Sequence record: NC_049827.1
Direction: 5' to 3' (one strand)
Length of the DNA: 51,154 nucleotides
From: Escherichia phage damhaus
Shown: positions 3,076 through 50,883 of the stretch, piece after piece
How the letters are laid out: every line of letters begins with the position of its first letter
Position numbering within the stretch: the stretch's first letter is position 1
Position numbers and translations under genes: made by a program
Notes under the pieces: generated by a model
The model's input: the letters and a program-made list of their open reading frames with translations, nothing else
What the model was told of the DNA's origin: nothing
Databases searched by the model: none

Positions 3076-5748
3076 ATGTCAGAACAATACGCAGGCTTGA
3101 CGCTTGGGGTTGACGTTTCTCAACTCAACAATGCTGTAAAGTCTTTGCAGCAATTCAAGAAGGCAAACGACGACGCAAAGGGGAGCGTTGAGAGTTTTGT
3201 TGATTCAGAGGTTGTTGCAAGACAAAGAGCCAAACAACTGGCTGAGGAATTGGCAAAGCAGAAGCAAGAATTTAAAGCAATTCAGTCGGCAATAGATCCG
3301 ACAGCAAGCAAAATGGATAAGTTGCGCCAGGCTGCGACACAGCTTGATGCGCTTTGGAAAAAAGGAATTGTTCCTGATGACACATTCTTTGAATTAGGAT
3401 CAATTCTTGAGACGCAGCAAAATAAACTGATCGCAACTAAAAAGGCGCTAACTGAAGAAGGCCGCGCAGCGCTTGAGGAAGCAAAAAATAAGGCAAGAGC
3501 AGAGGCTGAGGCAAGAAAGTTCATTGCGGCATTGCAGGCGCAAGCTGACGCAGCGGAAAAAACAAAATCAGAGCTTGTAGAAATGAGAGCCGCACAACTT
3601 GGAGTTAGTGCAGAGGCCGCGCCATTTATTGCAAAAATGAAGGAGCAGGAAAAACAAGCCTCAAAACTTGGCGTTTCTATGGGGCAGTACAAGCAAGCAA
3701 TGGCGCAATTGCCAATGCAGATTACTGACGTTGTTACTTCTCTTGCTTCAGGTATGCCAGTATGGATGATCGCAATCCAGCAGGGCGGGCAAATCAAGGA
3801 CTCATTTGGCGGTGTTGCTAACACGTTTAAAGCGCTAATGACATTTGTCACGCCTTTAAGTGTAGGAATTACGGCGCTGACTGGTGCTCTTGGTTATGCT
3901 GCATATAATGCATACAAAGCAAATGCACAACTGAAGGAGATCACAAAAACCGTTCAGGAGGCAACTGGTCTTTCTGGTGATTTTGCGGAGCGGATTGCAA
4001 CTGGAATCCAGGCGCTATCTGACAAGACAGGTGAGAGCGCCGATAATCTGGCAAAGGCATACATAAGCACTAAGGATGGAGCAACCGAGGCCATACAAAA
4101 ACTCGTCGATGTTGGGTTTACCTATGACGAAGCAAAGGTAAAGGTAAACGAATACAAGAATGCATCAAGTTTTGTAAGTCTCAACAATGAGATTGCTGAT
4201 CACAAAAACAAGGTTCTTGAGCTTGGCGATTCGTGGTATGAAGTCTTAAAAGCGAAGAATGATTATGCTTCACCGTCCGGCGGGCTGTTGGGGAAAGAGC
4301 TTGGTTATGTAAATCCTATGTTGCAATTTGCGAAGAACACCTATGAGGATATAGGAAAGATCGTAAAAGATGCGAATAAGGATATGGCGGAACGAGCAGC
4401 ACGCATCGACAGAGAAAATCTTTCCTTAAACAGAGTTCGAGCGGCGCAAGAGGCTTTAAACAAAGCCATAGAGGATCAGAAAAATGTAGCAAGGACAGCA
4501 GACGAAGAGTTGAAAAAACGAGCAGCCGAGAACGTGGAGTTCAGGCGAAAAGAGCTTGAAGAGGCGAAGAAGGCGCAGCAGCAAAAGGAAAAAGTTGGTG
4601 GAGTTGTAAAAGCACCAACAGAGAAGCTTGATAAGGAGCTATATGTTCTCAAAGCGCAACTTGAAACACTAAAAGAGCACAGGACTGTAAATGATGTTAT
4701 TTCACGCCAGAGGCAATCTTTGTGGAGCATTGAAAAGCAGATCCAGATCCTAGAGGAAGCGCAAAGCAAACGTAAGCTGACAAAAGCGGAACAGGCGTTA
4801 CTAAACGAGCAAAAAACAGTTCTTGCTATGGCAAAAGAAAAGGCCGAGATAGGCGATCAGATTGTTTTGCAACAGAGAAAGAACAAGCAATACCAGGAAG
4901 GGCTAAAGTTCATTCAGCAAACTTCAGATGCCATTGATGCTATGAACTTGCGACAGTCTGGAGCTACAGATCTGCAAATCCAGCGAGAGCTTGAATTGAA
5001 AAAGTTGCGAACTGATTATGTTGCTGGCGGAGGTAGTATCGACGATGAAATTTATCAGCAGATGGAAGCAAAGCTGAAGGAGTATTACGCCACTGAGGAT
5101 CAGCTAAGAAATAACTGGATTGCAGGAGCAAAAAACGCATGGGAGGTTTACGGACAAGATGCAATGGATATGTACGGAAACGTGCAAGATATTGCAAGCG
5201 AGGCGCTCAACGGTCTAACCAACCAAATGGCTACATTCCTTGCAACAGGCAAGGCAAACTTTAAGAGCTTCGCAACGTCAATCATCCAAATGATTATCCA
5301 GATGATCACGAAGATGGTTATCTTTAATGCCATATCCGGTGCGGTTGGCGGTGACACTTGGACGATTGGAAGCCTTCTTAAAAATGTTGGATTTGCAACT
5401 GGTGGATACACTGGCGACGGCGGGAAGTATGAGCCAGCAGGTGTTGTCCATAAAGGCGAGTTTGTCATGACGAAGGAGGCCACGAAGCGGATCGGAGTTG
5501 GAAATCTTTACAAAATGATGCGCGGTTATGCAAATGGCGGCGTTGTTGGCGGCACTTCATACACTGGCGGCGGAGTTTCATCTGGAGCAACAAATCTTAA
5601 TATTGGCGGGATCAACGTTGATATTAACAACGGAAGCGATCCGAAAGGGTTGGAGACTGGCGTAAAAATGATTTTCACTGATATGATTAAGCGTTCCTGT
5701 ACGCAGGGTGGGGAAGTTTACGAATTTGTTATGTCTAAGCGGGGGTGA
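3076..5748 (+). CDS. tail tape measure protein
   Basis: 890-aa ORF, long coiled-coil-like charged/Ala-rich central region, glycine-rich C-terminal part; follows chaperone frameshift pair. Confidence 0.85.
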
Positions 5749-13642: not shown

Positions 13643-14704
13643 ATGAATAAGTTTATGGCGTACACCAGCGAAGAAATGAGTAATGATCTTTATCACGATC
13701 CAGAAGCGTGGACGGCTGACTATGTTAGTGGATCAAGCCTGGCCGAGATTTACAGCACATGCCCGGCGGCGTGGAAGTTCAAGCCTCGTGACGATAATAG
13801 CAAGGCGCTAGTTTTTGGTACACAGTCGCATACCAACTTTGAAAGCAAGGAGCTTTTCGAAAAAACCTATCGACGCGCGCCAGCGCCAGAAGACTTTAAG
13901 GATCTGATAACTAGCCAAACTGCGCTTGCCGCAAAACTGAAATCATTTGGCCTGAAAGGTACAACCGGAAAGACTTATCCAGACCTTATCAAAATGATGG
14001 TCGATTGCGGAGAAGACCTTAACGTTATGTGGTTGATTGAGATGATCGAAGAAAGCCAGGCCAGAGCCGACGGAGTGCAGCTAATCGACGCTAAAGACTA
14101 CGACGCTTGCGTTGCAATGCGCCAGGTTCTGGAATCAATACCGGAACATAACGCATGTATGAATAGCAAGACAGCACAACGTGAATTATCGTTGTTCGGT
14201 GAAATCAACGGCGTAAAAGTCAAAGTGCGATGCGATCACGTTGACGTAACAAAGAACGTGACAGCAACTCTGATTGATGGTTACGATGAAAAAGGTCAAC
14301 CGATTTGCCGCGATATTATTTATCCAGAGGCCATTGTGATCACAGACTACAAAACCACGATGAGCGCGAATCCGTCTGAGTTTATGCGCCTGGCTTACAA
14401 TCACGGCTATTATTTGAAAATGGCGTTGCAATGTGATTTATTCAGGAAAGCGTATCCAGAAGAAAAGCGACCTATAGTTGTTCGCCTGTTAGCACAGGAG
14501 AAGAAAGAGCCTTATTTGCCGTTGGCTTTCCGCATGAACAACGAGCAATTGAAGATTGGGCGCATTCAGTACATGAGCGTGATTAACCAGTTTGCCATGT
14601 GCCAGCAACATGACGTTTGGCCTTCGTATTCAAACGGTGAGCCGGAGGTTTGTCTTGATACTCCTGATTGGGTGCGACGTCAGTTTAAGCAATATCTTAT
14701 TTAA
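13643..14704 (+). CDS. PD-(D/E)xK recombination exonuclease
   Basis: 353-aa ORF with IVITDYKTT (D-x-K) nuclease motif; first gene of exonuclease / annealase / SSB module. Confidence 0.6.
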   Translation: MNKFMAYTSEEMSNDLYHDPEAWTADYVSGSSLAEIYSTCPAAWKFKPRDDNSKALVFGTQSHTNFESKELFEKTYRRAPAPEDFKDLITSQTALAAKLKSFGLKGTTGKTYPDLIKMMVDCGEDLNVMWLIEMIEESQARADGVQLIDAKDYDACVAMRQVLESIPEHNACMNSKTAQRELSLFGEINGVKVKVRCDHVDVTKNVTATLIDGYDEKGQPICRDIIYPEAIVITDYKTTMSANPSEFMRLAYNHGYYLKMALQCDLFRKAYPEEKRPIVVRLLAQEKKEPYLPLAFRMNNEQLKIGRIQYMSVINQFAMCQQHDVWPSYSNGEPEVCLDTPDWVRRQFKQYLI

Positions 14705-14785
14705 ACAGCACAAATAGCTAAACAAATGAAAAATGCGGTGTTATAATTCACCGCATAAGTTAACAACAAGTGTGAGGAAATAAAC

Positions 14786-15064
14786 ATGGAAAACAAACAA
14801 GTTTCAGAGGTAGCAGTTCATATCAATAATTTTGCAACTGGCATGGCTATGTTGCTTCGTGACTTTGTAGCGCCGCTTGATCCAACGGCAGGCACAGAAG
14901 AAATGGAGTACATCAGAAAAGTAATGGATGCAGTCGATAACGTCGTACTTGTTGCAACAATGAGCGAAGACAACGAGGAAGCAATCAAGGCGGTAAAAGA
15001 AAGTTCTGATCGCATGATGGAAAATCTGATTAAATTACACACCAAAGAAGAAACAAAGCATTAA
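14786..15064 (+). CDS. hypothetical acidic protein
   Basis: 92-aa ORF with GAGGAA RBS; D/E-rich; no recognisable motif. Confidence 0.55.
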   Translation: MENKQVSEVAVHINNFATGMAMLLRDFVAPLDPTAGTEEMEYIRKVMDAVDNVVLVATMSEDNEEAIKAVKESSDRMMENLIKLHTKEETKH

Positions 15065-15109
15065 CAGCAATAAGGCGGCGAAAGCCGCCATTAGTTACGG
15101 GAATTAATC

Positions 15110-15766
15110 ATGAAACTATCAGAGCAATTCGATAAGGTTTTACCAGCACTGCATAAGGCGCGTAGTTTGTTTGTAAAGGTGAAGAAGGATAAGCAAAACA
15201 CTCACCTTAAAAACCGTTACGCAACACTTGATGCCGTACTTGATGCAATCACCCCAGCATTGAATGATAACGAGCTAATGTTGATGCAGGACATGATTGA
15301 AAGCGAACAACCTAACCGCATCAAAGTTGAGACAACCGTTCTTCATGTTTCAGGTCAGTGGGTGAAATTTTACGCAGAGCTACCAATCGTTAAAAACGAT
15401 CCTCAAGGTGTCGGATCTGCATTCACATACGCGCGTCGCTATGCAGCAGCAGCAGCATTTGGCTTAAGCCAGGCAGACGATGACGCACAGATTGCCGTTA
15501 AATCTGCAAACGACTGGAAGCGTGACATTGAGAAATGCGAAAGCGTAAACGAATTGCAAGAAGTGCTTAAATCAGCATGGAAGGCAAGCGATCCGGCAAG
15601 CAAGCAGGTAATTAAAGAGCATTACGAAAAACGCAAAGCAGAGCTTGAGATCGGAAAAGCGCGAGGATTTAATCCAGCGCAACCAAAGCAAAATCTCGCT
15701 ACTCAAGAAGTTGACACAAAAAACGACGAGAAAGTAAAATCACAAAGTATCACTGACTTTGAATAA
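15110..15766 (+). CDS. single-strand annealing protein (ERF-like)
   Basis: 218 aa with [17 protein letters not shown] motif as I recall it from ERF-family proteins; sits between exonuclease and SSB. Confidence 0.55.
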
Positions 15767-15772
15767 TTGACA

Positions 15773-15796
15773 TGGGGCGCTTGCGCCCCTTTCTTA
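15773..15796 (+). terminator. terminator-like hairpin
   Basis: GGGGCGC-TTG-CGCCCC hairpin followed by TTTCTT. Confidence 0.5.
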
Positions 15797-15810
15797 CAGG
15801 AGAATAAATA

Positions 15811-16263
15811 ATGCATATTATTACTGGTGAGATCCGAAAAGAGCCGCGAGTAAAGCAAATGCCTAACGGCAGCACACTTTATGTGGTTGAACTTTCAGAG
15901 CGATACAAAGATAAAGATGGAAACTGGCAATATACAAACTACAGTTTCTTTTTTAATGCCAAAACAGAAGGTCTTAATGGTTGGTATGCTGAGGCGTTCC
16001 AGGTTGGAAAGGTTATTTCTGTATCTTGCGACACGCTGCGCATAGAAACGCGTGAATATAACGGAAAGATGTATTCAAGTTTGATGCCTGGCGGATTTGC
16101 AAATCTTATCTTCAGTCAGCGCGGGGAAAGCCAGCAACAATATCAGCAGCGAACGCAAGGAGGATGGGGACAACCACAACAACAGAATCAACCGCAACAA
16201 CCGCAACAGCCAAGACAAAGCAATCAACCTCCTATGGACTTTGACGACGACATTCCTTTCTGA
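15811..16263 (+). CDS. ssb: single-stranded DNA-binding protein
   Basis: OB-fold-like N-terminus, Q/P/G-rich linker and canonical acidic tail DFDDDIPF. Confidence 0.85.
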   Translation: MHIITGEIRKEPRVKQMPNGSTLYVVELSERYKDKDGNWQYTNYSFFFNAKTEGLNGWYAEAFQVGKVISVSCDTLRIETREYNGKMYSSLMPGGFANLIFSQRGESQQQYQQRTQGGWGQPQQQNQPQQPQQPRQSNQPPMDFDDDIPF

Positions 16264-21518: not shown

Positions 21519-21992
21519 TTAGCAATTAGTGCTTTCAGGTTTATACAGGAATCCGCCAGGTTCATAATCTGACATTCTTACCACTCGCAACATTTCACGC
21601 TTATCACATCTCTTTGTGAGCGGTTTGCCATTGGAATCAAATCGCAGGTCTGGACGACAAAATGATGCGCGATAACCTTGACAGCCATACTTTTTATAAT
21701 CATTGTGCACCTTTTGAGCGCCAGCGGCTGAAATCATACCGCGAACGCGCCACTGATTTACAGTTTGCTGGCTAACGTTAAGACGTTTTGCCATTGCTGA
21801 TACACTTCCGTAATACTCAATAAGGATGTCAAGGCGCGCTTTTAGTCCGGCGCGAACTTCATCTTTTAAAACATAGTATCCTGTAGGGCGCTTGCGCTTT
21901 TTCTTATCTTTACCCCGTCGAGTTCCGTTGTTGCCATTAATTGTGCGCTTGTCAATCTTGCCAGTTGATACGGCGATCCGCTGTTCTTTCAT
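21519..21992 (-). CDS. HTH-domain DNA-binding protein (putative transcriptional regulator)
   Basis: 157 aa; predicted helix-turn-helix SVSAMAKRLNVSQQTVNQW; very basic N-terminus; divergent from helicase gene. Confidence 0.55.
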   Translation of the reverse strand: MKEQRIAVSTGKIDKRTINGNNGTRRGKDKKKRKRPTGYYVLKDEVRAGLKARLDILIEYYGSVSAMAKRLNVSQQTVNQWRVRGMISAAGAQKVHNDYKKYGCQGYRASFCRPDLRFDSNGKPLTKRCDKREMLRVVRMSDYEPGGFLYKPESTNC

Positions 21993-22081
21993 TATTCATT
22001 CTCCAATAGCATTTTTTGTTAAACGATGATTTAATGATTGTGTATTATACACGCCAAATGGCATTACTCAAAGGTTTTAGA

Positions 22082-45603: not shown

Positions 45604-46884
45604 ATGAGTAAATCACGAATCGTTAAGGCTGACGGCTACAACGAGATCTTTAAAGGCGAGAATTGCAAATCGCGAGTAGAGCAACCATTCTACATGCAGT
45701 CAATGCCATACAAGACGCTTGCTGACTTTTACGAAAAAGATGGCCTGGCAAAAAGGATTATTGACGTAGTACCAGAGGAAATGGTTTCCCCTGGCTTTAC
45801 TGTTGACGGCGTGGCAGACGAGGCAGCATTCCGTTCTTTGTGGGATGAGAAGCGATTGAATGCAAAAATCATTGATGCGCTTTGCTGGTCGCGTTTGTTT
45901 GGCGGATCTGCAATCATTGCTCTTGTTCAGGATGGGCGAGCGCTCAAATCACCTGTAAAGCCTGGTGCCATGCTGGAAGATGTGCGAGTTTACGATCGTT
46001 ATCAGATTCGCGTTGAAGCGCGAGAAACAAATCCCCGCAAGGTTCGCTATGGTGAGCCAGTGCTTTACACTGTAACGCCAGGCGGAGACTTGCCGGAATA
46101 CCAGGTACACTACACGCGAGTTTGCATTATCGACGGTGAGCGGATACCTAACGCAAAGCGACGCAGCAATGATGGCTGGGGTGAGTCAGTTCTTAACAAG
46201 AGACTTGTTGAGTCTATTGTTGATTATAACTATTGTGAAACATTGGCAACGCAATTATTGCGGAGGAAACAACAGGCGGTATGGAAGGCTAAAGGACTTG
46301 CTGACTTGTGCGATGATGAGGAAGGTGTTAGCGCGGCACGCCTGAGACTTGCGCAGGTTGACGATGAGGGAGGCGTAGGTAGGGCCATTGGTATTGATGC
46401 TGAGGATGAGGAATATGATGTTCTTAACTCTGACATTAGCGGCGTTGATTCTTTTCTGGAAAAGAAAATGGATCGCATAGTTTCCCTTTCAGGCATTCAT
46501 GAAATCATCCTGAAAAATAAAAACGTTGGCGGCGTTAGCGCAAGCCAAAATACGGCGCTTGAAACATTCTATAAGCTGATTGAAAGAAAACGCGTTGAGG
46601 ATTACAAGCCTATCCTTGAATTTCTATTGCCGTTCATCATTAGCGAGCAGGAGTGGAGCATTGAGTTTTCACCTTTGAGCGTACCTAGCGATAAAGATCA
46701 GGCTGAAATTCTGAATAAGAATATCGACTCAATCAGCAAGGCTATTGATGGTCAGTTCCTTGATGTTGAAGAAGCGCGAGACACGTTGCGAGCAATCGCC
46801 CCAAGCGTTAAACTAAAGGACACTAATAAAATCAAGCTGCCGGAGCCAGCGGAGCCGGAGCCAGGCACACAGGGGAATGAGTAA
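45604..46884 (+). CDS. portal protein
   Basis: 426-aa ORF directly downstream of terL; acidic C-terminus. Confidence 0.7.
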   Translation: MSKSRIVKADGYNEIFKGENCKSRVEQPFYMQSMPYKTLADFYEKDGLAKRIIDVVPEEMVSPGFTVDGVADEAAFRSLWDEKRLNAKIIDALCWSRLFGGSAIIALVQDGRALKSPVKPGAMLEDVRVYDRYQIRVEARETNPRKVRYGEPVLYTVTPGGDLPEYQVHYTRVCIIDGERIPNAKRRSNDGWGESVLNKRLVESIVDYNYCETLATQLLRRKQQAVWKAKGLADLCDDEEGVSAARLRLAQVDDEGGVGRAIGIDAEDEEYDVLNSDISGVDSFLEKKMDRIVSLSGIHEIILKNKNVGGVSASQNTALETFYKLIERKRVEDYKPILEFLLPFIISEQEWSIEFSPLSVPSDKDQAEILNKNIDSISKAIDGQFLDVEEARDTLRAIAPSVKLKDTNKIKLPEPAEPEPGTQGNE

Positions 46885-47648
46885 TGAAAGTGAAGGGCGT
46901 CGTTAAACAATGGCGCTTTCCTGAAGCAAGCGAGCGGCAATTTAGCCGCTCAATTCAGGAGGCAATTAGAGATCTTGTGGTTCTCATGCGCAAGCGAACA
47001 AAAGCGATGAAGTTTGACGCAACAGATAATGAGATCAACAGCGCAGAAGATGAAATTAACGGCCTGGCAACTGACCTTATAGCTGGCATTGTTTCAACTC
47101 TTCCTGCAATCGCGTTGACCATTTATAAATTCAATGCGAAGCAGTTTATCAATGTTGCCAAGTCAACTGGAGGAAAGGATAATACGGCGGTAATTGTTTT
47201 GATCGCGGTTGGAGCTAACGCTAACGAGGAGTGGTATCAGACGCTTTACGGGCAATGGCACGGACTCACAGAATCATCGCTAAGGAAGTTGTTTACAAAT
47301 ATTGTGTCTGACTGGTCAACAAACATTCGCAATGCAAACTTTCGCGGAAGCAATGATAAACAGGTTAATGATCTTGCAGAAAAGAGATTTGCTGTTTATA
47401 GCTCCTGGGGTAAAACGAGATCAGAAAACATTATCGGCGCGTGGAATAGTCGCCTGATGCGCCAGCGTCTTTATGATGCTAAGGTAACTCATTATTTCTG
47501 GCATGGAATGTTAGATGATAGAGAGCGATTGCAGCATGTGTTATGGGAAGGTAAAAGAATAGCTCTTGATGCAATTCATGATTTCCCTGGTGAGCCGTGG
47601 GGTTGCCGTTGCTGGGCGATTCCAGATTGGAATAGTAAAGGAGAGTAA
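46884..47648 (+). CDS. head morphogenesis / minor capsid protein
   Basis: 254-aa ORF coupled to portal gene; positional inference. Confidence 0.5.
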   Translation: MKVKGVVKQWRFPEASERQFSRSIQEAIRDLVVLMRKRTKAMKFDATDNEINSAEDEINGLATDLIAGIVSTLPAIALTIYKFNAKQFINVAKSTGGKDNTAVIVLIAVGANANEEWYQTLYGQWHGLTESSLRKLFTNIVSDWSTNIRNANFRGSNDKQVNDLAEKRFAVYSSWGKTRSENIIGAWNSRLMRQRLYDAKVTHYFWHGMLDDRERLQHVLWEGKRIALDAIHDFPGEPWGCRCWAIPDWNSKGE

Positions 47649-47651
47649 TTA

Positions 47652-48764
47652 ATGAAGGCAAAACAAAGATTTGATAGCGTCCAAGTTAAGGCGCATTTTG
47701 ATGATAATGGCTTTTTAGTGGATCGCCCAATTGTGGCGCGAATTGGCTTGCAGGAGTATCACACGCCGTATGGAATCAGACGAGAGTTCAGACCAGCGTC
47801 AGAGGTGTTCAAAGCTGATTCCCTTGCCACGTTCGCAGGCAAGCCGATCACTATCGGTCACGTCACGGTAACACCGGACAATGCGGATCAGGTTGTTGTT
47901 GGTTCATGCGCTGGCGCTGGTGTTCCTAATGGGATTGGCGTTGAAGTTCCGTTAAGCATTTACTCAAAGCGAGCAATTGAGAGTGCAAAAAAGAAAGATA
48001 CGGCTGAAATTTCAGTTGGTTACACATCAATTGATATTGATAAACCAGGATGGGGCAACAATAAAACTGGTGATTACTTATTTGATGAAGACCTTAAAGA
48101 AGACTGGAAGCCTGATTCTCCTGATTGGGTCAAATTTGACGCCATTCAGACGAATATCCGTGTCAACCACATTGCGCTTGTCTTTCGTGGTCGTGCTGGC
48201 ATTGCCAAATTAAATCTTGATAGTGAACAAGATTTTCCGTATAGTGACGAGGTTCTAAATGACAAAGGAGATGAGGAAATGACAGTGAAAATTAAACTTG
48301 ATGGCGCGGTAGAATTTGATGTTCCAAAGGCCGTTGCTGATCATATTGAGGCGTTAAAGGCAGATGCAAAAGCTGCAACCGAAAAAGCTGATGGCCTTGA
48401 GGCCGAGCGCGACGCCCTGAAAACTAAAGTCGATGGAATTCCGGCGCAGATTGCAGAAGCTGTTAAGAAGGCAAAGACTGACGCAGAAGAACACGCCAAG
48501 CTGGTTGCAGATGCAACTGAAATTGGCATCAAGTGTGACGGCTTGGACGCTAAAGCGATCAAGGTTGCTTACGTCAAAGAAGTCACTGGCGCTGATATTT
48601 CAGAAAAAGCCGATGCATATATTGAAACAGCTTTTGACCTTGCGAAGCAGTCTGATAAAATGGCGGCGCAGCGTAAATCTGTTAAGGGCGATTCTTTCGA
48701 ATCTGGCAAGAGTGAAAAAACCGACTCCCTTGATCCTACTGCGCGTTTGAAAAAACTTAAATAA
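47652..48764 (+). CDS. putative scaffolding protein / prohead protease
   Basis: 370 aa; C-terminal half charged and helical (repetitive K/A/E/D); position between head morphogenesis and capsid genes. Confidence 0.5.
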   Translation: MKAKQRFDSVQVKAHFDDNGFLVDRPIVARIGLQEYHTPYGIRREFRPASEVFKADSLATFAGKPITIGHVTVTPDNADQVVVGSCAGAGVPNGIGVEVPLSIYSKRAIESAKKKDTAEISVGYTSIDIDKPGWGNNKTGDYLFDEDLKEDWKPDSPDWVKFDAIQTNIRVNHIALVFRGRAGIAKLNLDSEQDFPYSDEVLNDKGDEEMTVKIKLDGAVEFDVPKAVADHIEALKADAKAATEKADGLEAERDALKTKVDGIPAQIAEAVKKAKTDAEEHAKLVADATEIGIKCDGLDAKAIKVAYVKEVTGADISEKADAYIETAFDLAKQSDKMAAQRKSVKGDSFESGKSEKTDSLDPTARLKKLK

Positions 48765-48776
48765 GGAGAAATAAAC

Positions 48777-49289
48777 ATGGCTACAATTGGAGCAAGCTAC
48801 TTTGCTGTAATGTCTCGTGCGTTACCTGGTCAGGTTTCTGACACTTCGGCTTATAATATTGATGGCGCTTGTGTTCTTGAGAATGCGGCAGGCAATCAGA
48901 ATCAGTCTGTTTTTGTTGGTGTGGCGGTCCAGCATGGCGGCGTTGACGCTATGGGCAATAAGCTAATTAAGCCGATGGCGGCAAGCGGCAAGGCTTACGG
49001 CGTTGCAATTCGATCTCACTTTCAGACAACTTCGTCTGACGGTCGAATGATTTATGAATCTGGCGGCGGAATCAACGTAATGACTGAAGGGCGTGTTTGG
49101 ATGTTGGCTAAAGACGCCTCCGCGCCAGCGTTCGGCACTACAATCAAACTGTCTGACGATGGTCAGGTTGATACCGGGTCTGGCACTATCGAAACAAACT
49201 GGATCGCGACTGGTGATTTCACCAAGTTTCAAGACTTGAAGCTGGTAGAGGTTCAGGTGCAAAAAGTTCCGGCAGTTTCAGCAGGTTAA
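48777..49289 (+). CDS. putative capsid decoration / structural protein
   Basis: 170-aa ORF with GGAGA RBS upstream of major capsid gene; paralog of next ORF. Confidence 0.5.
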   Translation: MATIGASYFAVMSRALPGQVSDTSAYNIDGACVLENAAGNQNQSVFVGVAVQHGGVDAMGNKLIKPMAASGKAYGVAIRSHFQTTSSDGRMIYESGGGINVMTEGRVWMLAKDASAPAFGTTIKLSDDGQVDTGSGTIETNWIATGDFTKFQDLKLVEVQVQKVPAVSAG

Positions 49290-49295
49290 TAAATA

Positions 49296-49320
49296 CGGCG
49301 CTCACTGAGCGCCTTTTTTA
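49296..49320 (+). terminator. rho-independent terminator
   Basis: GGCGCTC-ACT-GAGCGCC hairpin followed by TTTTTT. Confidence 0.7.
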
Positions 49321-49334
49321 TATTTGGAGTTCTC

Positions 49335-49769
49335 ATGAGTGATTATTCAGTCATTGTTGGCGCTGAGTCGCCAGGGTGCATGGTCGATTCTTCAATAATG
49401 GTGATTAACGGATCTTTCGTGTGCGGAGATGAATTTATTGCGCCAGGTAAGATTGTGCGACTATCACATATAACAAATGGATACAAAATAGCAAGTGTTA
49501 ATGGGGATCTCGTTATTGGCGTGGCAGTAAGGCCGCCGGACTCGTGCATATATGAGGAGGGCGATCCAGTTAATGTGGTTAGTCGAGGTAGTGTTTGGTG
49601 CTTAACTTCTGAGAGCGAAGCGCCAGAATATGGAGATAAAGTATTTGTAACGCAAGATGGATATGCGGCATACAGTGAAGGCGACTTGCTGATTGGTTGG
49701 ATCTTTACTGGCGAACATGTAAAGGTTGATCATGATTCATATATTGTCGGGGTAAGCATTGACTCATAA
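49335..49769 (+). CDS. putative capsid decoration / structural protein (paralog)
   Basis: 144 aa sharing the G(V/I)A(V/I)R ... VW(M/C)L ... A(P/E) pattern with the preceding ORF. Confidence 0.5.
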   Translation: MSDYSVIVGAESPGCMVDSSIMVINGSFVCGDEFIAPGKIVRLSHITNGYKIASVNGDLVIGVAVRPPDSCIYEEGDPVNVVSRGSVWCLTSESEAPEYGDKVFVTQDGYAAYSEGDLLIGWIFTGEHVKVDHDSYIVGVSIDS

Positions 49770-49787
49770 CACAAAATTATGTTGCAC

Positions 49788-49806
49788 GTTTAACAAAAAA
49801 TGCTAT
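49788..49806 (-). promoter_or_regulatory. conserved intergenic box, inverted degenerate copy (late region)
   Basis: GTTTAACAAAAAATGCTAT on + strand upstream of the major capsid gene, followed by a hairpin and RBS. Confidence 0.5.
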
Positions 49807-49852
49807 CATTGGTCCGTTACATACTAACGGCCTTTATATATGGAGGAAGAAA

Positions 49853-50827
49853 ATGGAAAAAGAAAAATTTGATCAGCTAGATGCGGATATTGTTTCTAGC
49901 TATCTGGCTACTCGCGGCGTTAAAGGTGATGCGTCCGATATGGGTATTTGGACCGCTCAAGAACTGCATAAGATTCGCTCTAATGCTTACGAGAAAGAAT
50001 ATCCGGCAGGTTCGGCGCTTCGTGTATTCCCTGTAACTAATGAGCTTTCTGATACTGATAAGACTTTTGAATATCAGATGTTTGACAAAGTTGGTTACGC
50101 AAAAATTATCGCTGATTACACCGACGACCTGCCGACCGTTGATGCGCTGATGTCTAGCGAATTCGGTAAAGTGTTCCGCTTGGGTAACGCGTTCTTGATC
50201 TCAATTGACGAAATCAAGGCTGGTCAGCGTACTGGTAAGAGCCTTTCTACTCGCAAGGCAAACGCAGCGCAAAACGCTCATGATCAGGAAGTTAACCGCT
50301 TAGTGTTTAAGGGTTCAAAGCCGCATAAGATTCTTTCTGTGTTTGAACATCCTAACCTGACAAAGATCGTGTCAACTGGCTGGTTAAGTTCTGATGAAAA
50401 CACCAAGTTCCCACAGGCGGCATCTGATGAACTGGAAAAGGCTATTGAAACCATTCAGACCATTACCAATGGTCAGCACCGCGCAACCAATATCCTGATT
50501 CCGCCGTCTATGCGCAAGGTTCTTTCAGTTCGAATGGAAAACACCACTGAAAGTTATCTGGAATACTTCCAGAAACAAAACAGCGGGATCACCATCGATT
50601 CAATCGCAGAGCTTGAGGATATTGATGGCGTTGGAACGAAAGGTTGCCTGGTATATGAGAAAGACCCGATGAACATGTCGATCGAAATTCCAGAAGCATT
50701 TAACATGCTTCCGGCGCAACCAAAAGATCTGCATTTCAAAGTTCCGTGCACTTCAAAATGTACTGGCCTGACGATTTACCGTCCGTTTACGCTAGTACTT
50801 ATTACTGGCTTGAAAAAATCAGGTTAA
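49853..50827 (+). CDS. major capsid protein
   Basis: 324-aa ORF with GGAGGAAG RBS, strong terminator downstream, position after decoration-like genes. Confidence 0.7.
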   Translation: MEKEKFDQLDADIVSSYLATRGVKGDASDMGIWTAQELHKIRSNAYEKEYPAGSALRVFPVTNELSDTDKTFEYQMFDKVGYAKIIADYTDDLPTVDALMSSEFGKVFRLGNAFLISIDEIKAGQRTGKSLSTRKANAAQNAHDQEVNRLVFKGSKPHKILSVFEHPNLTKIVSTGWLSSDENTKFPQAASDELEKAIETIQTITNGQHRATNILIPPSMRKVLSVRMENTTESYLEYFQKQNSGITIDSIAELEDIDGVGTKGCLVYEKDPMNMSIEIPEAFNMLPAQPKDLHFKVPCTSKCTGLTIYRPFTLVLITGLKKSG

Positions 50828-50839
50828 TCGTATAACATT

Positions 50840-50870
50840 GGGGAATCCTTAACTGGATTCCCTTTTTTAT
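50840..50870 (+). terminator. rho-independent terminator after capsid gene
   Basis: GGGAATCC-TTAACT-GGATTCCC hairpin followed by TTTTTT. Confidence 0.7.
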
Positions 50871-50883
50871 TGGAGGTTATGAA

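Follow-up and report, generated by a model that had tools for sequence, protein, structure and literature searches.

A tandem pair of cement genes upstream of the major capsid gene

The head-gene region of Escherichia phage damhaus (sequence record NC_049827.1, a stretch of 51,154 nucleotides (nts) referred to below as the window) contains two small adjacent genes, whose products of 170 and 144 amino acids (aa) are here called p170 (copy 1) and p144 (copy 2). A sequence-only reading of this stretch had described them as paralogs that arose from one decoration or cement protein by an old duplication, lie upstream of the major capsid gene, are separated by a terminator and may occupy distinct positions on the capsid. 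Both open reading frames (ORFs), the terminator and the capsid gene are indeed in place. The pair is very probably the counterpart of the major and minor cement proteins that decorate the head of phage T1. The elements of the locus are arranged as follows:

48763-48768 (+), Shine-Dalgarno sequence AAGGAG of the p170 gene, 8 nts ahead of its ATG (read from the sequence)
48777-49289 (+), p170 gene (copy 1), predicted major trimeric capsid cement protein, 170 aa (PF22758, phmmer, identity to T1 gp49)
49297-49321 (+), intrinsic terminator between the paralogs (terminator scan, fold energy, synteny with T1)
49326-49329 (+), Shine-Dalgarno sequence GGAG of the p144 gene, 5 nts ahead of its ATG and weaker (read from the sequence)
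49335-49769 (+), p144 gene (copy 2), predicted minor cement protein of the T1 gp48 lineage, 144 aa (PF23982, PF22758, profile test, AlphaFold2/Foldseek)
49782-49809 (+), promoter-like element, putatively serving the capsid gene (conservation across loci, T1 counterpart)
49814-49830 (+), short hairpin CCGTTA-CATAC-TAACGG and then a T-rich stretch, 3′ of the promoter-like element and 5′ of the capsid ribosome-binding site (RBS) (terminator scan)
49853-50827 (+), major capsid gene, T1 gp47 ortholog and binding partner of the cement proteins (PF09950, E = 1.2e-53; T1 gp47 chain 9kzj_A, E = 2e-157)

Homology, family membership and predicted fold

Far from failing to align, p170 and p144 are 33% identical over their C-terminal 72 residues (BLASTP expectation value, E = 7e-13) and about 28-29% identical over their full length. 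The sequence-only reading had based their kinship on three pairs of shared motifs. All six strings are present (GVAVQ, VWML and APAFG in p170; GVAVR, VWCL and APEYG in p144), but the first pair was set out of register: in the alignment, GVAVR of p144 lies opposite GVAIR of p170 (residues 75-79), not opposite GVAVQ (residues 48-52). Both proteins pass the gathering thresholds of two Pfam families with a cut-off of 27 bits, PF22758 (Phage_cement, E217 gp24/Pam3 gp6) and PF23982 (XM1 gp53 minor capsid protein). The first family gives 91.6 bits for p170 (E = 6.7e-26) and 54.7 bits for p144 (E = 1.6e-14), and the second gives 66.0 bits for p170 and 93.2 bits for p144 (E = 1.9e-26). PHROG 1989 is matched by p170 and p144 alike, and the genes stand within the head module beside the major capsid gene, as is characteristic of the Phage_cement and XM1_gp53 families. 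The assignment as decoration or cement proteins is thus sound. A chance origin of the similarity is ruled out by the BLASTP result and the shared families, and noncoding status of either ORF by the family matches together with the substitution rates given below.

Residues 1-162 of p170 match the 158-aa chain of the solved T1 (9KZJ) and FCWL1 (9KMG, 9KMH) capsids (phmmer E = 3.5e-46). The protein is 55% identical to T1 gp49 over its full length and scores 265 bits against a profile of copy-1 proteins. These sequence comparisons make p170 orthologous to T1 gp49 and to the FCWL1 "cement protein II," and its predicted fold is taken from the 55% identity to the solved gp49. At its N-terminus, the segment MATIGASY...ALPGQVSDTS is aligned to MAQINASY...ALPGMVADTS of gp49, the arm that inserts into the T1 capsid.

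Among Protein Data Bank (PDB) chains, p144 matches the gp49-type chain with E = 1e-10 and the N-terminal 145 residues of the 255-aa gp48-type chain with E = 3e-9. An AlphaFold2 model of p144, computed from a 61-sequence alignment, has a mean predicted local distance difference test score (pLDDT) of 84.8 and a predicted template-modeling score (pTM) of 0.81, and is all-beta, as is typical of the cement fold. Structure prediction, which the sequence-only reading had proposed as a check, thus supports its assignment. In Foldseek searches, the model superposes best on the T1 and FCWL1 cement chains of 9kmg, 9kmh and 9kzj (template-modeling (TM) scores 0.73-0.79, probability 1.00), reaching TM 0.79 with 9kzj_H; next come the cement protein of cyanophage Pam3 (8hdt_G, TM 0.67) and that of Vibrio phage XM1 (7kmx_a, TM 0.61). 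Two further PDB entries, 9N01 and 9YIX, matched the capsid protein but were discarded as capsid references, being Avs7 immune-sensor complexes without a cement protein.

The cement proteins of T1 and other phages

The T=7 head of T1 is built from 415 gp47 subunits and decorated, at the 3-fold and quasi-3-fold axes, by 80 homotrimers of gp49 and 60 heterotrimers composed of one gp48 and two gp49 (PMC11945409). The gp49 protein and the N-domain of gp48 share a common beta-tulip fold analogous to that of gpD and gp56, and residues 154-255 of gp48 are flexible and protrude outward, for which the authors suggest a possible role in adsorption (PMC11945409). The window reproduces the T1 gene order (9KZJ; PMC11945409) element by element: protease, gp49-type gene, terminator, gp48-type gene, promoter-like element and capsid gene. 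The p144 protein aligns across the whole gp48 N-domain, with the same fold in the model, and is about 32% identical to it. It differs in that gp48 is 255 aa long and bears an outward BIG2 domain, whereas the p144 chain ends with the cement domain; moreover, the position in the virion is known for T1, while p144 is known from sequence.

The T1-like phage FCWL1 (9KMG, 9KMH) presents a very similar picture. Its 158-aa protein has the sequence of T1 gp49 and its 255-aa protein is close to T1 gp48; in the T1 and FCWL1 entries together, the depositors named the 158-aa chain "decoration protein / cement protein II" and the 255-aa chain "BIG2 domain-containing protein" or "decoration protein gp29." By these PDB descriptors, the minor paralog of FCWL1 bears BIG2, unlike p144. 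More distant relatives are found in the E217/Pam3/XM1 group (PF22758, PF23982), with which p170 and p144 share both families and whose Pam3 and XM1 members match the p144 model, although the phages of this group are myophages or cyanophages, with 16-18% identity to p144. Lambda gpD and TW1 gp56 likewise form capsid-stabilizing trimers at 3-fold and quasi-3-fold sites, and the beta-tulip analogy to them was drawn by the T1 authors. A sequence relationship to them, however, is undetectable, the p144 model matches TW1 5wk1_K weakly (E = 0.2, TM 0.60), and lambda places one protein at all 140 sites.

The location of the T1 heterotrimers can be narrowed down by counting. Around one T1 hexon lie four homotrimers and two heterotrimers (Figure 2A legend, PMC11945409). 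A T=7 lattice offers three classes of trimer site: penton-adjacent sites (2 per hexon, 60 in total), general hexon-only sites (3 per hexon, 60 in total) and strict icosahedral 3-fold sites (1 per hexon, 20 in total). Because only the penton-adjacent class gives both 2 per hexon and 60 in all, we infer that the mixed trimers of T1 occupy these sites, a counting argument of the present analysis rather than a statement of the T1 paper. Each penton-adjacent site touches one penton and two hexons, mirroring the 1:2 subunit ratio of the trimer. In the portal-vertex entry of FCWL1, 9KMH, the gp48 homolog is represented by five chains, which agrees with five copies at each vertex.

Transferred to the damhaus capsid, this architecture would make both p170 and p144 beta-tulip-type cement proteins on the outside of a T=7 HK97-fold shell, clamping neighboring capsomers at 3-fold and quasi-3-fold sites. 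The abundant subunit would be p170, forming the homotrimers and filling two of the three places in the mixed trimers. By homology, p144 would be the rare subunit, taking the third place in 60 mixed trimers, which the published T1 counts would put next to the pentons; it has lost, or never had, the outward-facing, immunoglobulin-like (Ig-like) BIG2 domain. The distinct capsid positions envisaged by the sequence-only reading are therefore supported by electron cryomicroscopy of T1, with its 80 homotrimers and 60 heterotrimers (PMC11945409), and the placement and stoichiometry of p144 in this phage are what we infer from it by homology.

Sixty copies of p144 would fit equally well into 20 homotrimers at special sites such as the strict icosahedral 3-fold axes, unmixed with p170, and a protein without BIG2 that is about 32% identical to the gp48 N-domain could assemble differently. 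Such an arrangement is unlikely, however: in the only solved homologs the gp48-type protein is one subunit of a mixed trimer, with five copies around the vertex in 9KMH, and p144 groups with the gp48-type N-domains. A place for p144 in mixed trimers of the T1 type is thus the preferred reading.

Distribution, age and lineage of the second copy

The breadth of the arrangement was assessed by retrieving 78 related loci from IMG/VR and classifying their ORFs, which left 74 usable loci. Two tandem cement genes occur in 50 of the 74 and a single gene in the other 24, comprising Rtp-like phages and another group. T1, a member of the Tunavirinae, has gp49 at 13744-14220, an annotated rho-independent terminator at 14235-14267, gp48 at 14282-15049 and the capsid gene at 15140-16099. 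Compared pairwise across loci, copy-1 proteins are on average 63% identical, copy-2 proteins 41% and capsid proteins 81%; in 96% of the locus pairs, copy 2 has diverged further than copy 1.

The single-copy loci (L057-L080, of which L061 is phage Rtp) include several with an extra 0.4-1.6 kb between the cement and capsid genes (e.g., L062, L064, L066, L070). One locus, L034, the IMG/VR copy of Shigella phage 2019SD1 (UNVERIFIED_ASMBLY at NCBI), has a rearranged copy 2 of 176 aa with its C-terminal half repeated internally, together with a frameshifted or extended copy 1 (the two proteins being P0001 and P0098); these oddities are probably an assembly artefact.

The lineage of p144 was determined with profiles built without its own clade. 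It scores 120.8 bits against the N-domains of BIG2-bearing copy-2 proteins and 136.2 bits against the other short copy-2 proteins, versus 49.5 bits against copy 1 and 55.9 bits against single-copy proteins. Its gene also occupies the slot that defines the gp48 type, flanked by the terminator that follows the gp49-type gene and by the capsid gene. By its sequence, p144 is thus of the gp48 lineage and not of the gp49 type, and the duplication therefore predates the divergence of Tunavirinae and Tempevirinae. The great age proposed for the duplication is borne out in this way, by the gene order shared with T1, which belongs to another subfamily, and with 50 of 74 T1-like loci, and by the gp48-type scores of p144.

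Two simpler tests of type were tried and abandoned. Single-sequence scores of p144 against gp49 and gp48 (43 vs. 41 bits) cannot assign it. A neighbor-joining tree of 117 cement domains, computed from BLOSUM62 distances, shows copy 1 as a tight clade and copy 2 as several long branches, one of them beside the Rtp-like single-copy proteins; it was set aside as an unreliable test of orthology and replaced by the leave-clade-out profiles.

These same near-equal scores and scattered long branches, along with a lower G+C content at third codon positions in p144 than in p170 (0.37 vs. 0.45), are what one would expect if p144 had been gained separately, by horizontal transfer into the slot, as an analog and not an ortholog of T1 gp48. 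Such an origin is nevertheless quite improbable, for the profiles separate the lineages (121-136 bits for copy 2 vs. 50-56 bits for copy 1 and single-copy proteins), the slot is the same in 50 of 50 loci, and tails homologous to the BIG2 part of gp48 recur in 24 of the 50 copy-2 proteins, on divergent N-domain lineages that include near relatives of p144. Recombinational exchange of copy-2 alleles among T1-like phages is compatible with orthology and with horizontal gain alike.

An optional BIG2 domain

Descent from the gp48 lineage does not entail the complete gp48 architecture. The p144 protein ends 1 residue past the cement domain and has no BIG2 match, in which it departs from the gp48 type; it is a domain-minimal relative of gp48, not its full architectural equivalent. 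It is far from alone in this. Among the 50 copy-2 proteins, 26, p144 included, are without BIG2 and end at most 22 residues past the cement domain, and the remaining 24 extend beyond that domain by about 100 aa, in one case by about 195 aa, of sequence homologous to the BIG2 region of T1 gp48. This longest form, a 338-aa copy 2 at 3540-4556 of locus L043, presumably contains two Ig-like modules or an extra insert. Copy-2 proteins with BIG2 are scattered over several divergent lineages and are found also among the nearest relatives of p144: the 239-aa protein P0023 is 51% identical to p144 and aligns with T1 gp48 over both domains (E = 1e-21). The simplest reading is that BIG2 is ancestral and optional, having been lost or exchanged repeatedly.

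The short form is also under constraint. The ratio of nonsynonymous to synonymous substitution rates (dN/dS) is 0.13-0.17 for p144, in comparisons with about 35 synonymous changes, 0.13-0.19 for p170 and 0.03-0.10 for the capsid gene, and p144 is under purifying selection. That p144 might be a decaying gp48-type remnant which, BIG2 lost, no longer contributes to the virion, as the missing display domain thought to aid T1 adsorption and a gene position behind a strong terminator with a weaker RBS might suggest, is scarcely credible against this dN/dS, an ORF intact in every Hanrivervirus found (86-97% identity), a confidently folded model and the retention of BIG2-less copies in 26 of 50 loci and several lineages.

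Expression signals around the pair

The terminator between the two genes consists of a 7-bp G+C-rich stem, a 3-nt loop and a run of six T residues (GGCGCTC-ACT-GAGCGCC followed by TTTTTT, 49297-49319). Its folding energy of -14.2 kcal/mol (z = -3.3 vs. shuffles) confirms it as real. A hairpin with a T-run lies 3′ of copy 1 in all 50 two-copy loci, against a background rate of 3.9% for the same detector in random 81-nt windows. The hairpins comprise 24 different sequences, and the structure has therefore been maintained while its sequence changed. In the window, the terminator nearly fills the 45-nt gap between the p170 and p144 genes, and the Shine-Dalgarno sequence GGAG of p144 is shorter than AAGGAG of p170 or GGAGG of the capsid gene.

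On the other side of copy 2, the promoter-like element, unique in the window, has the hexamers TTGCAC and TATCAT 16 nts apart, and TGC at the 3′ end of the spacer supplies the TGn of an extended -10. In 49 of 49 two-copy loci, the TTG of the -35 and the TAnnnT of the -10 are conserved and a 19-nt motif, described below, is present. This conservation is as expected of an extended -10 sigma-70 promoter, which the element may well be. T1 has the same element at 15060-15090, where it is unannotated (T1 L002 15060-15120). Related loci have a hairpin at the same place after it, with a different stem sequence; the corresponding hairpin of the window (49814-49830) could be a protective 5′ leader hairpin, a weak terminator or an attenuator. 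In single-copy phages, a terminator and then a promoter-like, near-consensus TTGCGT-N17-TATAAT lie between the cement and capsid genes.

This layout suggests how two adjacent paralogs could be made in very unequal amounts. Lying 5′ of a strong terminator, p170 would be expressed at a high dose. Behind that terminator, with a weaker RBS and a 45-nt gap that leaves no room for a promoter of its own, p144 would be expressed at a low dose by read-through, and the capsid gene would regain high expression from its own conserved promoter-like element. Copy 2 would thereby sit in a transcriptional trough between the terminator and the capsid promoter, which would fit the roughly 6:1 dosage of the two proteins (360:60 in T1). 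Literature searches found no transcriptome of a T1-like phage and no virion proteomics of a Hanrivervirus.

Assessment of the T1-type cement pair

Several considerations weigh against this account. The position and copy number of p144 are extrapolated, as the solved structures come from phages with a BIG2-bearing copy 2 and none comes from Hanrivervirus. The neighbor-joining tree, with its long branches, did not unite all copy-2 proteins in one clade. Read-through dosing of copy 2 is deduced from sequence features, and a terminator also follows the cement gene in single-copy phages; it was therefore not created to dose copy 2 and is older than, or independent of, the duplication. Lastly, 24 of 74 T1-like loci carry one cement gene, and the geometry of penton-adjacent sites therefore does not demand a second paralog.

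A bolder proposal, which we put forward tentatively and consider somewhat less probable than its negation, is that the primary, conserved job of the second paralog is structural and not one of display. It would serve as a penton-facing adaptor in the 60 penton-adjacent trimers, its dose of about 1:6 hard-wired by the succession of terminator, copy 2 and promoter, with the Ig-like domain as an optional add-on and a 19-nt box tying capsid-gene expression to a phage-specific transcription factor.

Much of the pair is already explained by the 2025 work on T1 and FCWL1, and current knowledge is not overturned. What is new here is a well-conserved minor paralog without BIG2, and a comparative picture of the locus that combines terminator, promoter-like element, fast-evolving copy 2 and optional display domain.

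The phage and its head module

Escherichia phage haarsle shares 97.7% identity with segment 47652-50827 of the window, and Shigella phage pSf-1 shares 94% identity with segment 20000-44999, over the 90% of it that can be aligned. The window phage is therefore placed, by sequence, in Hanrivervirus (Drexlerviridae, Tempevirinae), as a T1-like siphophage. Its head module runs in the order portal, MuF-like protein, protease, p170, p144 and capsid protein (Pfam and PHROG); the elements flanking those already listed are:

45604-46884, portal gene (Pfam/PHROG)
46884-47648, MuF-like head morphogenesis gene (Pfam/PHROG)
47652-48764 (+), head maturation protease/scaffold gene, T1 gp50 ortholog, directly 5′ of the pair (DUF2213, E = 1.6e-26; PHROG 530 "head maturation protease," E = 3e-111; syntenic with T1 ST50)
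50840-50871 (+), intrinsic terminator 3′ of the capsid gene (terminator scan; annotated T1 terminator at the equivalent place)

A repeated 19-nt motif

The promoter-like element of the capsid gene contains, within its spacer, one copy of a box that recurs throughout the genome. The 15-nt core AACAAAAANTGCTAT of the 19-nt motif TTTTAACAAAAARTGCTAT has 16 matches in the window with at most 2 mismatches, 12 of them exact, against 1.2 expected, and the same core has 12 matches in T1 (locus L002) against 0.84 expected. The core matches in the window lie at:

2380, 13201, 28799, 30966, 31642, 33920, 34796 and 49792 (+)
22006, 24530, 25550, 36133, 36597, 37602, 38611 and 41313 (-)

Twelve of the window copies lie within a cassette of about 80 bp that is repeated between early-region genes. 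The cassette consists, in order, of AAATAGCACTTTTTGTTAAAAC, 17 variable and often self-complementary bases (often a hairpin), GGTATAAT, about 6 bases, CATCGAAACGA, an RBS and ATG; the TAG inside the box is often the stop codon of the upstream gene. The cassettes look like a family of promoters that lack a -35 but have a good -10 and, upstream of it, a box specific to the phage. A simple sigma-70 promoter, considered as the identity of the motif, fits the copy within the element at 49782-49809, with its conserved TTG and TAnnnT, but most of the other 15 differ, their conservation stopping at ...GCTAT and their orientation to genes varying.

The box also stands in the opposite orientation to the gene, directly before the RBS, at the tape-measure chaperone gene and at a phage regulator gene. 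The copy at 22006-22020 (-) lies just before the RBS of a predicted transcriptional regulator (ORF 21519-21992 (-)), and a T1 copy (L002 36444-36458 (-)) lies likewise before ST23, the T1 homolog of this regulator. This arrangement suggests that the regulator may be autoregulated and is a candidate binder of the motif; our working guess is that the motif is the binding site of a phage transcription factor. Literature searches found no mention of the motif sequence, and Rfam had no match anywhere in the window.

Annotation of the cement genes

Public records name the orthologs of p170 and p144 "putative zonula occludens toxin," "scaffolding protein," "SbcC-like scaffolding protein," "capsid fiber protein," "peptidase" or "hypothetical protein," and a small gene of the head-tail connector region of haarsle is labelled "ribonucleoside-triphosphate reductase." Such names appear to be propagated errors. 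A further 19-21 records labelled as Campylobacter jejuni phages match the window phage (e.g., MG065667, "Campylobacter phage A127"), p144 being 92-94% identical in those listed, which are p144-only matches. These records may have been mis-assigned, because T1-like coliphages are known laboratory contaminants. The genes of p170 and p144 deserve the names of major and minor capsid cement proteins.

Implications for T1-like phages

T1-like phages are noted for environmental stability (PMC13164509), and their cement proteins likely contribute to it. For engineering, the C-terminus of p144 offers a naturally tolerant site for the display of foreign domains; with the stoichiometry of T1, each capsid would present about 60 of them. 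For the biology of the group, about half of the two-copy loci keep a minor paralog without the Ig-like domain, which argues that the second cement protein has a structural role of its own.

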